Below, piece by piece: positions 12,491 to 18,911 of a stretch of DNA of 20,907 bases; the stretch's first letter is position 1, and each line of letters starts with the position of its first letter. The translations under genes were made by a program, and so were the position numbers. The notes beneath the pieces are model-generated. The model was not told the origin of the DNA. It was given only the letters and a program-made list of their open reading frames with translations, and ran no database searches. This DNA comes from an uncultured euryarchaeote (GTDB lineage Archaea; Thermoplasmatota; Poseidoniia; Poseidoniales; Poseidoniaceae), in the NCBI GenBank assembly GCA_937899865.1, contig CALBRH010000040.1, positions 1-20,907 of the forward strand, in the 5' to 3' direction.

Positions 12491-13185
12491 TAATTATGAG
12501 AAAGCGTACTGGACTAATTGCTGCGATTATTGTTGTTTTAGGCATTGCCTTAACGATTAGTTTGACTCAAGTAATGATTAATCTATTTGCTGATTATCTA
12601 AACTGGTTTATCGACAACAAATCCTTTGGAATTGCTATATTCCTGTCACTATATATCGTGTTTGGCATTGTTGCTATTCCCGCTAGTTTTCACAAATATC
12701 TTGCAGGCGTGATTTACGGTTTTGGACCTGGTATAATCATCGCTTGGATAGGTTCTATGCTTGGTGCAATAGCGCCTTTCTTCTTAGGTAAAAAATGGAT
12801 GAACCCCTATGCAAGAAAGGCTCTTGAAGACTATCCAAGTTTGAAAGGTTTAGAAGATGAAATTACTAAGCAAGGTCAAAAAGTAGTTGCCCTTACTAGA
12901 GTAAGTTTAGTCATACCATATGGTGTTTTAAATTATGCTTATGGTGCTACTAAAGTTAAATTTAGAGATTTTTTCATCGGTAACTTTGCTATGATTGTAC
13001 CAGCGATAATCTATGCTTGGTGGGGCTCTCAAACTATAGTGACAAGCAATGGAATTGAAACTACGGCAAAAACTCCATTTGATTTTGTTATCATTTTAAT
13101 TTCAATAATCATCACAATCGCTCTAATTGTAAAAGGTAAACGAATCATGGAAGATCTTGAACGAAATGTTGAAGCAACTCAATAA
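12487..13185 (+). CDS. TVP38/TMEM64 (VTT domain, DedA superfamily) membrane protein
   Basis: AIPASF..LAGVIYGF, GSMLGA, LTRVSLVIPYGVLNYAYG. ATGA overlap with the aconitase stop. Confidence 0.88.
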   Translation: MIIMRKRTGLIAAIIVVLGIALTISLTQVMINLFADYLNWFIDNKSFGIAIFLSLYIVFGIVAIPASFHKYLAGVIYGFGPGIIIAWIGSMLGAIAPFFLGKKWMNPYARKALEDYPSLKGLEDEITKQGQKVVALTRVSLVIPYGVLNYAYGATKVKFRDFFIGNFAMIVPAIIYAWWGSQTIVTSNGIETTAKTPFDFVIILISIIITIALIVKGKRIMEDLERNVEATQ

Positions 13186-13201: not shown

Positions 13202-13208
13202 TTTTTTT
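13202..13208 (+). terminator. Putative oligo-T terminator
   Basis: T7 tract 16 nt after the VTT gene stop. Archaeal intrinsic terminators are U-rich tracts. Confidence 0.4.
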
Positions 13209-13246
13209 GTGTTAGTTATTATGTACCGTCGGTAATCGAAATGGAG

Positions 13247-13290
13247 TGTTGCTGGCCCGAGGTCATTCGGACCGAGGAGGACCAGAGACG
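13247..13290 (+). promoter_or_regulatory. Structured 5' leader of top6B containing a kink-turn
   Basis: GGUC/GACC stem, GAG bulge, tandem G.A/A.G pairs, then GG/CC and CCAG/CUGG. SD GGAGUGA at 13290-13296. Confidence 0.6.
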
Positions 13291-13301
13291 GAGTGACAAA
13301 G

Positions 13302-15380
13302 ATGTCTGGTATAGCACAAAAATTAGCATCGAAACAAAAACAAGTAGCAATTTCAGAATTTTTTGAGAAAAATAAACACTTTTTAGGATTTGATTCTCCA
13401 GTAAGGTCATTGATTACCGCGGTCAAAGAAGCGGTTGACAATGCCCTTGATGCATGTGAAGAAGCTCGTATTCTGCCTTCAATCAAAGTTAAAGTTACCA
13501 AGATAGATACGAAAAAGGACATCATCGAACTAGTTGTTGAAGACAACGGTCCTGGAATTCCTCAGAAAAGTATTGAGAAGGTTTTCGGACAACTATTGTT
13601 TGGATCAAGATTCCATGCTATTAGACAATCCCGTGGACAACAAGGTATCGGTATTACTGGGGTAGTAATGTATAGTCAATTAACTACTGGAAAACCCACT
13701 CATGTCAGGTCAAAAATCGCAACCGAATCGACTGCTGCTGTAGTTGATATTGGTCTTGATACTAGGAAAAATAAAGCAACAAAAAGCAATTCAGGTCGAG
13801 AAATTTGGGAACTTGAAGATGGCGAGATGAAAAAACACGGCTTAGAAGTCACCACTAGAATGAAAGCAAAATATCAGAAAGGTAGGCAAAGCGTATGGCA
13901 ATATTTGCGGATGACTAGTATTGTCAATCCTCATGCAGAAATCACATTTACCGACCCTGAAGGTGAAGTTCATCACTGGCCAAGAGTCACTGAACGCCTA
14001 CCAGGTAAAGTCGAATCAATAAAGCCGCATCCACACGGCATTGAATTAGGGCAATTGCAAAGAATGCTGACTGAATCTACTGATTCGCGCTTGTCTGTTT
14101 TTCTTAGAACTAACTTTTCTGGAGTCTCTACTAGGGCTGCAAAAGAATTGTGTGCTGCTGCAGAATTAGAAGTAAAGATCAAACCAAAGCAAATGTCGCC
14201 TGACCAAGTACGCGCCTTACTCGAAGCCTTTCAAGGAGAGAGAATGTTCCAAGGCAAACCAGTCAAATTACTGAACCCTCCAACTAATTGTCTATCTCCA
14301 ATCGAAGAGATGTTAATCAAAAAGGGTCTATCAAAAACTATTGACTCGAGGTATGCTACAACGATGACTAGAGCTCCTAATGTCTCTCAAGGTAATCCAT
14401 ATCAAGTTGAAGTTGGCTTGATTTTTGGAGGCGATATGGCATCTGATAAGTCTGTTGAAGTTTTACGCTTTGCCAATCGCGTTCCTTTGATGTATCAACA
14501 AGGTGGTTGTTTGTTAACCAAGGCTATCGAATCTGTTGATTGGCGTCAATATGGACTTGATCAAGCAGGTGGAAAAGGTGTACCAAAAGGTCCTGCTGCG
14601 ATCTTAGTACATCTAGCGAGCACTAATGTTCAATTTACTTCTGAGGCAAAAGAAGCATTGGCAGATAATGGGGAAGTTTTGGAAGAAGTCAGAAAAGCTA
14701 TGTTGGAAATGGGTAGAGGCCTAAGAAAACACTTAGAAAAGAAAAAGAAAATGGCTAAAACAAAAGAGAAGTTTGAATTAATTAACGATATTTTGCCAGC
14801 AATTGCTAAAAAATCTGCACAGATTTTAGATAAACCCGTTCCTAATCTTGCAGGCTCAATAACCAAAATTATGTCCGCTGTTATTTGTGAAAGCGATACA
14901 GAATGGAATAAGGAATCTAAATCTGTTGATGTATCAATAAAGATCTACAATTATACTGCAAGAGCAAGAGCATATACAATACTTGCAACTTGGCCGGAGA
15001 AGTCTGGTGGAGTTATGAAAAACAATCAATATGGTGGCAGAAAAGAAGCGACTGGAGTCTGGGCTTGGAAATTAGATACCTTACAGCCTGGAGAAAACAT
15101 AACAATCACATTCAGCCTTGATGGTTTAGAAAAAGGCGATTGGACTGAAACCGATGTATTCTATCGAGGAAGTCAAGAAATAATTGGTGCAATGAAAATG
15201 GATGAGAAATATCTTGAAGAAATTCGTAACCAAGAGAAGATTTTGAATGAGCTAAATTCATCTACTCAGGTTGAAAGTTTCGAAAATTCCGAAGAAGCAT
15301 CAAAAGAGGATGAACCTACACCAGAACCTGCGGTTAAACCGCCTTCTGGCCAATCAACTCTATTTGGAGGTGAACAATGA
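13302..15380 (+). CDS. top6B: DNA topoisomerase VI subunit B
   Basis: GHKL motifs (EAVDNALDA, EDNGPG, GQQGIG), H2TH, transducer RFANRVPL, and a C-terminal extra domain. ATG 13302 follows SD GGAGTGA. Confidence 0.97.
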   Translation: MSGIAQKLASKQKQVAISEFFEKNKHFLGFDSPVRSLITAVKEAVDNALDACEEARILPSIKVKVTKIDTKKDIIELVVEDNGPGIPQKSIEKVFGQLLFGSRFHAIRQSRGQQGIGITGVVMYSQLTTGKPTHVRSKIATESTAAVVDIGLDTRKNKATKSNSGREIWELEDGEMKKHGLEVTTRMKAKYQKGRQSVWQYLRMTSIVNPHAEITFTDPEGEVHHWPRVTERLPGKVESIKPHPHGIELGQLQRMLTESTDSRLSVFLRTNFSGVSTRAAKELCAAAELEVKIKPKQMSPDQVRALLEAFQGERMFQGKPVKLLNPPTNCLSPIEEMLIKKGLSKTIDSRYATTMTRAPNVSQGNPYQVEVGLIFGGDMASDKSVEVLRFANRVPLMYQQGGCLLTKAIESVDWRQYGLDQAGGKGVPKGPAAILVHLASTNVQFTSEAKEALADNGEVLEEVRKAMLEMGRGLRKHLEKKKKMAKTKEKFELINDILPAIAKKSAQILDKPVPNLAGSITKIMSAVICESDTEWNKESKSVDVSIKIYNYTARARAYTILATWPEKSGGVMKNNQYGGRKEATGVWAWKLDTLQPGENITITFSLDGLEKGDWTETDVFYRGSQEIIGAMKMDEKYLEEIRNQEKILNELNSSTQVESFENSEEASKEDEPTPEPAVKPPSGQSTLFGGEQ

Positions 15381-16477
15381 TGGCTGGAAGGATGAGTGCT
15401 GAAGAAACAAAATCGGCAATGCAATCTGTCGTTTCAGAAATGTATGAAAAAATTGTCAAAGGTGAGCCGCCAACGATGACACTACCGGTTAGAACAAAAA
15501 ATAATATTGGGTTTGACAGGAAGCTTGGTGTTTACAAGTATGGAAAAAACAAATCAATTCGTGATGCTACAAGTTTGGGTTCAGCAAAACAATTGTTACG
15601 AGCATTATACATAATTGAATTCATTGAAGATATGATTGACTCTGGTAAATCATCGACTTTAAGAGAAATGTATTACATATCAGAAAGTTGGGGTCTTGGT
15701 AAATTTGGTAGCCAAAATGAATCAAACAATCTAGCTGAAGATTTGGAAATAGTAACTAAATGTTTACGTGAAGATTTCAAATTAAGACCTGAAGAAGATG
15801 GAGCAAGAATCATTGGCAATCTAACTTTGCAGGAGAGAAATCGACGTGGAGAATGGATGAGAATCAATGCAAGAGATGATGTTGGTGATTCTGGTTATGG
15901 TGTTCCATATAATGTTGAAATGGAAAAAATTGAATTCTTAGAACATGATATTAATTTCCTAATGGCAATTGAAACTGGTGGAATGTTTGACAGATTGGTT
16001 GAAAATGGCTTTGATGAAGATTACAAATGTGGCCTGTTGCATCTAAAGGGACAGCCTGCTCGTTCTACTAGAAGAATCATCAAGCGAATGAGTGAAGAAT
16101 GGGATTTGCCAGTTGTAGTATTCCTTGACGGCGATCCATGGTCATTCAGAATTTTTGCTTCTATTGCTTATGGTGCAATCAAGACTGCACATATTTCCGA
16201 ATACTTGGCAACTCCGAGTGCAACCTATCTCGGAATAACTTCAGACGATATCTTAGCTTATGATTTACCTAGTGATGATTTATCCAAGAAGGATGTTGAA
16301 GCATTAAATGCAGAGTTATCCGACCCAAGATTTGCTGATTCATGGTGGCAAGACCAAATCAATATGATGCTTGAATTAGGTAAGAAGGCTGAGCAGCAAT
16401 CTTTAGCAAAGTATGGTTTGGATTTCGTAACCGATACATACTTGCCAGAAAAACTAGCAGAACTTGGTCTTGCATAA
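15377..16477 (+). CDS. top6A: DNA topoisomerase VI subunit A
   Basis: TLREMYY (catalytic Tyr), TOPRIM AIETGG and DGDP, KAEQQ. ATGA overlap, SD GGAGGTGA at 15366-15373. Confidence 0.97.
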
Positions 16478-16518
16478 TCGTACAAGCATTCATGGAGGAC
16501 TTCGACAGAGGATTGACT

Positions 16519-17538
16519 ATGGCGCAAAGTAATGCCAACCCATGGGCAATGCGTGTTGGAATTGCTGGGTTGGTCTTTTTGCTACTTGGTGCAGTCGCGA
16601 TTTTTTCTAATATGGATCAAATAGATGAAGCGTCAAGTCCAAAGAAAATCAATGAAGCAGCAATTACTGGCGGTGGCGCTAAAACTGTAGATTTAACCAA
16701 CAGTTGCTATTCGGCAGTTATCATTTCAGATGATATCACAAATGTCAGCCTGCTAAAAATGAGTGGTTCAAATATCGCTGACGAAGCTATTGAATCAAGT
16801 AATTGCAAGACTGATTGGACGCCAATGGATTCTGATGGAAGTAGATTTACCATTATCAAAGAATGGGACATTACGGAAAAAGGTGAATATGTACTTGAGG
16901 TAGAATGTGAATCAAATTGTGACAATTCTACACTTTGGTTAGTTGATGCTACCAGCGCACAATGGAAACTATTGGAACAGCCTGCATTGGTTTTTGGCGG
17001 AGCAATGTGCTGTATCGGAATCGCTTTCCTACCGTTTGCTTTCATCCTTTACCTATCAAATAAGAATTCTAATGGACCCAAAGTTATGATGGTTGGTGCT
17101 AATGGACAAGTTATACCCATCACAGATTTAACTCCCGAAAATATAGCAAATATTCAACAACAGCAAGCAGAAAAGGTAGATAACCCATTTGCAGATACTG
17201 GAATAGATAAATCTGAAGAATTCATTGATGGCAGAGAAGATGTTCAAAATGGCACATTGCTAACTACTGAACAGGTATTTGCTTTGATGAAAGGCGATGT
17301 CGATGAAGCTCAAAATAGAATTGCAGATCCATTCGCTGACTATAATACCCTGCGTCAACCTGAGGCTGAAAAGAAAATTACCAATACAAAAGAAATTTCA
17401 TCATGGGATGAAGGTGGAAGTGTTGAATCAACTAAAACATCTAACGAAAGTGATTCAAAGAAAAATGTTAAACAGAAAATTTCGCCTAAAAAATCAGAGT
17501 CGAAACCTAATGCATGGAAAGATTGGGATGAAAATTAG
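16519..17538 (+). CDS. Hypothetical membrane protein (2 TM, Cys-containing external domain, acidic disordered tail)
   Basis: Hydrophobic segments VGIAGLVFLLLGAVAIF and ALVFGGAMCCIGIAFLPFAFILYL. Start at ATG 16519 after GAGG; 16492 is possible. Confidence 0.8.
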   Translation: MAQSNANPWAMRVGIAGLVFLLLGAVAIFSNMDQIDEASSPKKINEAAITGGGAKTVDLTNSCYSAVIISDDITNVSLLKMSGSNIADEAIESSNCKTDWTPMDSDGSRFTIIKEWDITEKGEYVLEVECESNCDNSTLWLVDATSAQWKLLEQPALVFGGAMCCIGIAFLPFAFILYLSNKNSNGPKVMMVGANGQVIPITDLTPENIANIQQQQAEKVDNPFADTGIDKSEEFIDGREDVQNGTLLTTEQVFALMKGDVDEAQNRIADPFADYNTLRQPEAEKKITNTKEISSWDEGGSVESTKTSNESDSKKNVKQKISPKKSESKPNAWKDWDEN

Positions 17539-18164: not shown

Positions 18165-18911
18165 ATGGCCGACATTGACCAAGCACTGTGGCTTTTACAA
18201 AATAAAGTTCGTAGACAAATTCTCGAGAGATTGGTGAGAGAACCTCATTATCCAATGCAATTAGCAGAATTAATTGGTGTAAGCCAACAAGCGATTAAAA
18301 AACATCTCAAAGAATTAGAAAATGGTAATTTCGTTACCAAATTAAAAGTTCCAAGTGAAAAGGGTGGCCCACCTAGAACAATTTATACCGTTCAACAAGC
18401 AATATCGATTAGAATTGATTTAGGCCCTGATTTATTTAATTGTGAGCAAAGAAAACTTCCATCTGGTGGCCCAATGAGGCTGTCTAGTAAACTTCCAGAA
18501 GCAACACATTCGGTTGCTGAGATGGTAAGTGGAAGAAAGCGTATTTCAGTTAGTGAAGGAGTTGGACACTTATCGGAATTGAATCGAGTTATTGAGCAAT
18601 TAGATAACGAAAGAGATGCTCTTATTTCATTGCATCAACATATTCGTAATCGTATTTCACAAGGAGTTGACAGTGATTTTCAGCAATATGAAGAACGAGC
18701 CATGATACATTCGATTATTGAAGCGCCAGAAAAGCGACTAGATCTAAACTTGCTAAGCAAAGAATTGCAATTAGGACAACGCCAAATGTCTGAATTGTTA
18801 GAAGAAGTGCGCTCTAAATTACAACGCCAAATTTCTCAAAGAGCTGGCCACATTATTGCAACACCTGAAAACTCTGACCTATACTGGTGGCTTGGAGATT
18901 ACAAGAAATAA
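18165..18911 (+). CDS. ArsR-type winged-helix transcriptional regulator (archaeal long form)
   Basis: LQNKVRRQILERL, YPMQLAELIGVSQQAIKKHLKELE, GGPPRTIY, a coiled coil, and a possible second HTH near the C-terminus. ATG 18165. Confidence 0.88.
   Translation: MADIDQALWLLQNKVRRQILERLVREPHYPMQLAELIGVSQQAIKKHLKELENGNFVTKLKVPSEKGGPPRTIYTVQQAISIRIDLGPDLFNCEQRKLPSGGPMRLSSKLPEATHSVAEMVSGRKRISVSEGVGHLSELNRVIEQLDNERDALISLHQHIRNRISQGVDSDFQQYEERAMIHSIIEAPEKRLDLNLLSKELQLGQRQMSELLEEVRSKLQRQISQRAGHIIATPENSDLYWWLGDYKK

Follow-up and report, generated by a model that had tools for sequence, protein, structure and literature searches.

The leader of the top6BA operon in an uncultured euryarchaeote of the Poseidoniaceae contains a hairpin that forms a true RNA structure, present once per genome and retained by almost all of the Marine Group II archaea sampled. 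We judge this element to be real because one match per genome is found before top6B and because its helices exhibit compensatory changes. The window analysed here is the whole 20,907-nt stretch of contig 40, from an archaeon with a 2.0-Mb genome of 39.7% GC. In it, the original prediction had recognised a consensus kink-turn (K-turn) adjoining the ribosome-binding site, and had proposed that L7Ae controls the operon through this motif, which would tie Topo VI synthesis to ribosome biogenesis; any such tie is speculative. The regulatory-looking RNA beside the ribosome-binding site is real; the K-turn and the L7Ae mechanism are not its conserved part.

Anatomy of the top6B leader

Every base, stem, bulge and mismatch named in that prediction, together with the Shine-Dalgarno sequence (SD) and the ATG, sits where it had been placed, and the segment is indeed GC-rich (62% over 50 nt, against 39% for the window). 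The features of the locus are the following, with the evidence in brackets.

13202–13208, plus strand: oligo-T run, putative terminator (sequence)
13212–13232, plus strand: promoter-like block with TTAG, a TATA-like octamer (13216–13223) and the palindromic heptamer CCGTCGG (13226–13232) (same-genus leader conservation)
13242–13295, plus strand: top6B leader motif, full covariance-model match (62 bits, E-value = 2.4 × 10-10)
13247–13250, plus strand: 5' strand of the optional outer helix P0, pairing with 13287–13290 (pairing counts, weak)
13252–13258, plus strand: 5' strand of helix P1, with a nearly invariant core GGCCC at 13254–13258 (alignment, covariation)
13259–13260, plus strand: G and A, positions 2n and 1n of the predicted K-turn; family-wide, two basal P2 pairs with 13275 and 13274 (alignment)
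13261–13273, plus strand: core hairpin of P2, 13261–13264 with 13270–13273, pentaloop 13265–13269 (covariation)
13274–13275, plus strand: G and A, bulge positions L1 and L2 of the predicted K-turn; family-wide, 3' partners of 13260 and 13259 (alignment)
13276–13278, plus strand: invariant GGA, a plain 3-nt bulge family-wide; L3 and the sheared G and A of the predicted K-turn (alignments)
13279–13285, plus strand: 3' strand of P1, with A13281 opposite C13256 (alignment)
13290–13296, plus strand: working SD of top6B, GGAGTGA, outside P1 and P2 (sequence)
13302–15380, plus strand: top6B, 692 aa (Pfam Topo-VIb_trans, HATPase_c)
15377–16477, plus strand: top6A, 366 aa (Pfam TP6A_N, Topo_VI_alpha, Toprim)

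The gene upstream of top6B is a VTT-domain gene (Pfam) with its stop codon at 13183–13185. The oligo-T run that follows is likely to be an archaeal terminator and the beginning of an independent top6B promoter region. Among same-genus leaders, the distance between the end of the TATA-like box and GGCCC is fixed at 30–32 nt; from this constant spacing we predict that top6B transcription starts at about 13244–13248, some 6–10 nt before P1. The N-terminus of Top6B is shared with its relatives from the annotated ATG at 13302 onward, and the start region of top6A overlaps the top6B stop codon by 4 nt. Homologous leaders exhibit a GGAGG-like SD located 1–6 nt 3' of P1, and the AUG follows P1 at a constrained distance of 11–19 nt.

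The description of the family is based on an alignment (A1) of 59 distinct top6B leaders, for which we gathered leaders from 24 genomes of the same genus and five of another family, and then from about 40 more genomes spanning genera. Every leader gathered from the Poseidoniaceae and the Thalassarchaeaceae exhibits GGCCC, a variable hairpin and GGAGGACC. Twelve columns of A1 are invariant (G13255, C13256–C13258, G13270, G13276, G13277, A13278, G13279, G13280, A13281 and C13282), and these invariant bases concentrate in the core of P1 and in the GGA bulge, while the pairs of P2 turn over. In P1, 13255–13258 and the GGAC of 13279–13282 are the same in all 59 leaders; G13254 differs in two of them and C13283 is a U in two, the pair 13254:13283 being A-U in one leader and G.U in another. 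The two outer pairs of P1 covary, 13252:13285 and 13253:13284 exhibiting A-U, U-A, C-G, G-C and U.G. The GGA of 13276–13278 is unchanged in 59 of the 59 leaders of A1 and in 93 of the 93 distinct rows of a second alignment. In the pentaloop (13265–13269), the first two bases (A, U) and the last one (G) are conserved.

The fold is thermodynamically ordinary. The 34-nt core, with its GC-rich helices, folds at -12.7 kcal/mol (family mean -11.2 kcal/mol), and the minimum free energy corresponds to a z-score of -0.42 for 68 nt and to a mean z-score of about -1.3 for the 34-nt core. The register of the inner part of P1 is ambiguous, all of its bases being invariant and the alternatives lying within 0.7 kcal/mol. 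The weak extension UGUU/GACG of the original prediction (P0) would reach the first base of the SD, but its pairing is only marginally above that of slid controls: 60.6% of its cells are paired, against 47.9% after shuffling and 56.8% when one strand is slid by -1 column.

The positions 13275–13280 read AGGAGG, a perfect 6-nt SD-like sequence lying inside the structured element, 21 nt 5' of the AUG. It complements the 3' end of the 16S rRNA better than the working SD at 13290–13296.

Distribution and covariation

A covariance model built from A1 finds a single match in the 2.0-Mb genome of the window, at 13242–13295. One match per genome is obtained in 60 of the 64 Poseidoniaceae and in 40 of the 41 Thalassarchaeaceae (100/105 in total). 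No match is found in 45 genomes of the sister order, nor in the two genomes that represent the third family of Poseidoniales. In a phylum-wide sample of 151 Thermoplasmatota genomes, 26 of the 27 Poseidoniaceae and Thalassarchaeaceae exhibit a match, and all the other families exhibit none. The motif is carried by 98 of 100 separately fetched top6B loci; in the 80 of these that were retrieved with a constant flank of 400 nt, its 3' end lies some 6 nt 5' of the ATG. Further regulon members are absent from the genome of the window at E-value ≤ 10, and in the other genomes there is never more than one match per genome at E-value ≤ 0.1. A repeat or a mobile element was rejected as an explanation, the core pattern and the covariance model each being single-copy in the genome.

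No Rfam 15 family reaches its gathering score anywhere in the window, and none is found at E-value ≤ 10 over 13240–13300. Our literature searches found no report of a top6 leader RNA. The original statement that no such control had been described for top6 thus agrees with both searches.

The helices P1 and P2, with the GGA bulge between them, are supported by covariation. In A1, the two-helix model pairs 80% of the cells, against 66.7% after shuffling, and its covariation score is 0.371 against 0.163; none of 500 shuffles reaches 0.371, and slid controls score 0.08–0.14. A second, model-fitted alignment leads to similar contrasts (84% of cells paired against 72.3%; covariation score 0.294 against 0.104). 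Individual pairs of A1 change by compensatory substitution: 13253:13284 is A-U in 28 leaders, U-A in 17, U.G in five and C-G in three; 13261:13273 is C-G in 21, U-A in 16, A-U in four and G-C in four; 13263:13271 is U-A in 46, C-G in nine and G-C in three. Among the paired cells, G.U and U.G outnumber A.C and C.A by 34 to 3 and by 50 to 4 in the two alignments (about 12:1). This excess indicates that the constraint bears on the top6B-sense RNA rather than on an antisense transcript or a cruciform in the DNA. Thus, as expected of a structured leader, compensatory changes on the sense strand go together with a consistent association with the 5' UTR of one gene.

Three genomes of the genus Poseidonia (G067, G088 and G112; loci L231, L232 and L233) carry a degraded motif that the covariance model misses. 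These copies exhibit a G-to-C change in the otherwise invariant 3' strand of P1 and a weakened P2. This three-genome subclade looks like a natural loss of the element, which would be dispensable at least there.

Two loci of unusual structure were met in this survey. The genome G063 exhibits top6B 5' ends at two contig ends (L234 on its contig 4, L038 on its contig 27). The motif is visible on the contig-4 copy, and the contig-27 copy reaches the end of the contig before the position of the motif; this duplication reflects either assembly redundancy or strain heterogeneity. In the sister-order top6B loci L078–L092, where the motif is absent, the reading frame stays open 5' of the conserved N-terminus and is rich in lysine or in alanine and proline, apparently as an N-terminal extension of Top6B.

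The K-turn register and L7Ae

Taken by itself, the window sequence can be drawn as a consensus K-turn, just as originally proposed. The bulge 13274–13276 is followed by the facing GA dinucleotides, then by C13258-G13279, C13257-G13280, the A13281.C13256 mismatch and CCAG/CUGG. The bulge geometry and the strand polarity are those of a K-turn, whereas the family-wide model bulges 13276–13278 instead. Like Kt-7 and the box C/D K-turns, the 2+5 loop of the window is writable as a C stem, a 3-nt bulge, G.A, A.G and an NC stem; in this register -1b:-1n is C:G and 3b:3n is G:C. Such a pattern is frequent, however. A K-turn-hairpin descriptor (C stem of 3–7 bp, loop, 3-nt bulge, GA facing GA, NC stem) matches 326 places in the genome, against about 222 in first-order Markov simulations. 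This density corresponds to about three matches per 20.9-kb window on both strands, and the pattern alone is not significant.

In a K-turn, A is required at 1n and G is normal at 2n. At 1n (13260), 38 of the 59 distinct leaders have A, 10 have U, 10 have G and one has C; at 2n (13259), 26 have G, 19 have C, 10 have U and four have A. The original prediction was to be refuted if its tandem GA pairs proved non-conserved, and their 5' strand does vary, 1n being other than A in 21 of the 59 leaders; in the leader alignment, which the prediction had put forward as a check, the two helices covary and this strand of the GA does not hold. The variants of 13259/13260 other than GA and AA always pair with 13275 and 13274 (or an inserted base): UU occurs with AA, UG with CA, AC with GU and UA with UA, and the Thalassarchaeaceae variant exhibits C-G plus one further pair. 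In these Watson-Crick variants, P2 gains two pairs and only the 3-nt bulge G13276-G13277-A13278 is left between the helices. G13277 and A13278 never vary, with or without a GA partner, and sheared pairing with 13260 and 13259 thus cannot explain their conservation.

A Top6B tree (FastTree, 105 loci) shows how these states are distributed. GA or AA is present in 89 of the 105 leaders, 88 of them among the 96 rows of a well-supported crown clade of Poseidoniaceae; the Thalassarchaeaceae and the two deepest Poseidoniaceae branches exhibit Watson-Crick pairs at 13259/13260. Within the crown clade, the purine state has been replaced by Watson-Crick pairs at least twice. One of these reversals concerns a UU clade of seven genomes from the genus of the window, among them the MG-II genome that was published first. 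At least four state changes are needed on the tree, three of them forced by its starred branches.

The purine state itself allows two registers with the same canonical pairs: with the tandem purine pairs stacked on P2, the bulge is GGA; with the distal GA in use, the bulge is 13274–13276 and a K-turn results. The equivalents of L1 and L2 are limited to R and A, respectively, and that of L3 is an invariant G. This restriction is demanded by the in-line register, with its tandem purine pair and GGA bulge, and not by a K-turn. Judged from the alignments and the tree, the K-turn look is a lineage-specific overlay in crown Poseidoniaceae, not the conserved core of the element. A perfect K-turn consensus in a single sequence was not what conservation had kept, which calls for caution with predictions of this kind. 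The top6B element differs from Kt-7 and the box C/D K-turns in that its 1n varies among homologues, in that a second register uses the same canonical pairs, and in its family-wide form, a simple 3-nt bulge between Watson-Crick helices.

The l7ae gene of the same organism provides a positive control. It occupies 1423–1794 of the minus strand of locus L094, on contig 65, and rps28e and rpl24e come next. The l7ae leader (L094, 1785–1830, minus strand) forms a textbook K-turn hairpin with the polarity seen in the top6B leader, the AUG lying within the bulge and the 1b position and the SD in the loop. This is the same arrangement as in published archaeal l7ae operators (PMC6298567). Among 48 Poseidoniales genomes from three families, 45 match the strict K-turn descriptor in the l7ae leader (43 with GA, two with AA), and the other three still exhibit GA before the C stem. 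The 5' GA of l7ae abuts the SD, and part of its conservation may reflect the latter. The genomes G016, G020 and G044, whose top6B leaders have UU, retain the l7ae K-turn. Evidently, going by these leader sequences, L7Ae-dependent K-turn control exists in Poseidoniales and keeps its GA, unlike the top6B element. Through the MGII l7ae leader, the autoregulation published for L7Ae is extended to Marine Group II.

The window's top6B leader resembles this MGII l7ae leader in its loop-capped C helix, the 3-nt bulge on the 3' strand and the tandem GA facing GA, and it shares with the l7ae 5'-UTR K-turn operator the general layout of an archaeal 5'-leader hairpin adjoining the SD. The l7ae-type operators are weak, unstable hairpins that occlude the SD or the AUG inside the fold (Huang, Ashraf and Lilley 2019, PMC6298567). 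In contrast to these operators, which keep their GA, the top6B element is GC-rich, has its SD outside, and loses the 5' GA in a third of the distinct leaders while the rest is kept. Specifically, the SD at 13290–13296 lies 3' of P1 and the weak P0 reaches only its first base, so that the sequestration typical of an l7ae-type operator is not seen.

These observations bear on whether L7Ae binds the K-turn register in crown Poseidoniaceae (bulge 13274–13276; G13277.A13260 and A13278.G13259) and thereby represses top6BA translation. The exact fit of the window to the consensus speaks for this, as does the persistence of GA or AA at 2n-1n over a large clade; A.A at 2b.2n is reportedly tolerated in natural K-turns, according to work of the Lilley laboratory on Kt-23. 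The use of a same-polarity L7Ae hairpin by l7ae in the same genome points in the same direction. L7Ae has been established to bind K-turns in four Sulfolobus mRNAs, including those of l7ae and nop5 (Daume et al. 2017, PMC5539422), and all tested K-turns fold upon L7Ae addition, whatever the 3b:3n pair (PMC6298567). The main text of this RIP-seq paper on L7Ae (PMC5539422) does not contain the word "topoisomerase". Against these points, 1n departs from A in more than a third of the distinct leaders (21/59), and GA has been lost twice within the clade, including seven genomes of the window's own genus, with the l7ae K-turn intact there. The equivalents of L1, L2 and L3 are constrained in a way that a K-turn does not need, and G13277 and A13278 stay unchanged even when they have no partner. 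Moreover, the SD is outside the hairpin and the helices are GC-rich, unlike in l7ae operators, the descriptor match is frequent by chance, and -1b:-1n is G:C, a rare type, in most leaders. We thus regard repression of top6BA by L7Ae as unlikely in crown Poseidoniaceae; as a conserved feature of the element it fails, GA being lost in some lineages while the element remains. Close relatives that differ at 13259/13260, some with a loop compatible with a K-turn and others with plain Watson-Crick pairing, constitute a natural experiment on the L7Ae hypothesis.

Candidate functions of the element

We favour, with moderate confidence, the view that the element is a previously undescribed structured 5'-UTR operator, acting post-transcriptionally on top6BA in Poseidoniaceae and Thalassarchaeaceae and read by a putative trans factor. 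This reading follows from its single copy, its linkage to one operon, the presence of invariant surfaces beside covarying helices, and its fixed position next to the SD. The element is made up of P1, whose GGCCC/GGACC core is nearly invariant and in which C and A are always opposed, of the invariant GGA bulge on the 3' strand, and of a freely covarying P2 of 6–7 bp capped by an A-U-N-N-G loop. It begins no more than about 10 nt from the predicted 5' end and ends 1–6 nt before the SD. A sequence-specific trans factor, most simply a protein, may bind the invariant bulge and the P1 core. This factor might be a regulator devoted to the operon, or Topo VI in autogenous control, the latter being, by pure conjecture, the simplest candidate. 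Once bound, it might block or allow loading of the 30S subunit at the SD next to it, with a possible further effect on 5'-end-dependent decay. The SD is unsequestered because P0 is weak, and repression would thus have to be steric. In crown Poseidoniaceae, the two basal P2 pairs have turned into purine oppositions (GA or AA facing GA or AA), which enlarges the bulge to a 2+5 internal loop open to two registers, one of them a consensus K-turn.

Bulged hairpins that serve as protein operators are well known, such as HIV-1 TAR with its 3-nt bulge and those of phage T4 gene 43 and MS2. The top6B element resembles them in being a short hairpin, in its conserved loop and small conserved bulge and in its covarying helices, and it is likewise located at or beside the ribosome-binding site of a single dedicated target mRNA. 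This analogy is functional only, the top6B element exhibiting no sequence similarity to them.

An extended form of the operator reading combines it with L7Ae: Topo VI or an RNA-binding protein would read the invariant GGA bulge and the P1 core, and in Poseidoniaceae the purine switch between in-line tandem GA and K-turn would let L7Ae also tune the operon. We hold this combination to be improbable. If true, such a feedback loop with an L7Ae switch, in the most abundant planktonic archaea of the ocean, would give archaeal topoisomerases their first conserved riboregulator, and would be a natural example of a K-turn evolved on an older bulged operator.

A different role could be attributed to the AGGAGG of 13275–13280. 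This sequence might pair with the 3' end of the 16S rRNA and be masked by the CCC strand, the fold setting how frequently 30S subunits are captured unproductively, or kept in standby, 21 nt from the AUG. The 16S rRNA ends in ...GGAUCACCUCCU, of which AGGAGG is a perfect 6-nt complement, a stronger match than that of the working SD in the same leader, and the three Cs opposite GGAGGA, with several near-isoenergetic registers, are as expected of a labile mask. However, the functional SDs of the same leaders vary freely and AGGAGG does not, and the invariance of the following ACC and of the opposite GGCCC is not explained by anti-SD pairing. The distance to the AUG also speaks against a decoy, no start codon stands at SD spacing, upstream ORFs are absent, and the Thalassarchaeaceae carry GGGAGG instead. 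Such a decoy or standby site is quite unlikely on this evidence. An upstream ORF or an alternative start served by AGGAGG was rejected, no conserved start being found at SD spacing and the N-terminus being conserved from the annotated ATG.

The predicted transcription start 6–10 nt 5' of P1, the constant spacing from TATA to P1 and the conserved paired structure would also suit a stem-loop flush with the 5' end that guards the top6BA mRNA from 5'-end-dependent decay with no ligand involved. Pairing alone would suffice for this purpose. The twelve invariant bases, the GGA bulge, the C.A opposition and the conserved loop would then be superfluous, and the element occurs on one mRNA only; we consider a ligand-free stabiliser very unlikely. 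A DNA-level element in the initially transcribed region, either a repressor operator or a supercoiling-sensitive cruciform, would agree with the invariant half-sites of the P1 core, with the location at about +8 to +38 and with the supercoiling-responsive control known for bacterial gyrase genes, but it is hardly credible given that the asymmetry between G.U and A.C (34:3 and 50:4) is incompatible with a symmetric DNA cruciform, that the bulge and the mismatch are retained on one strand only, and that the sequence of P2 is free provided that pairing holds.

A post-transcriptional operator of top6BA remains our preferred reading. The motif represents a new RNA family, probably of a known broad type, the structured 5'-UTR operators, and it carries a lineage-restricted K-turn look-alike. 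Conserved cis-regulatory RNAs have seldom been described in archaea, and we know of none for a topoisomerase. The covariation is strong enough for defining a new family, which is single-copy and strictly linked to top6BA in the abundant, uncultivated Marine Group II. The element provides a concrete handle on the control of Topo VI dosage.

Two other features of the locus deserve mention. The ORF following top6A (16492–17538, 348 aa) exhibits a hydrophobic N-terminal stretch and no Pfam match, and matches only same-genus loci, with 29–95% identity over its first 125 aa or so. Since its N-terminus looks membrane-anchored and its matches are confined to the genus, we rejected it as a co-conserved regulator. 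The heptamer CCGTCGG is located two bases 3' of the top6B TATA-like box and is conserved genus-wide. It exhibits no genome-wide enrichment, with 37 copies, a number comparable to that of control heptamers, and was rejected on this basis as a genome-wide promoter signal. A similar CCGTCG is found just 5' of the l7ae TATA-like box, and a near-identical block TTAG..ATTATG..CCGTCGG occurs on contig 15 at position 18704. From its placement, CCGTCGG could be a promoter-proximal element or a transcription-factor site.
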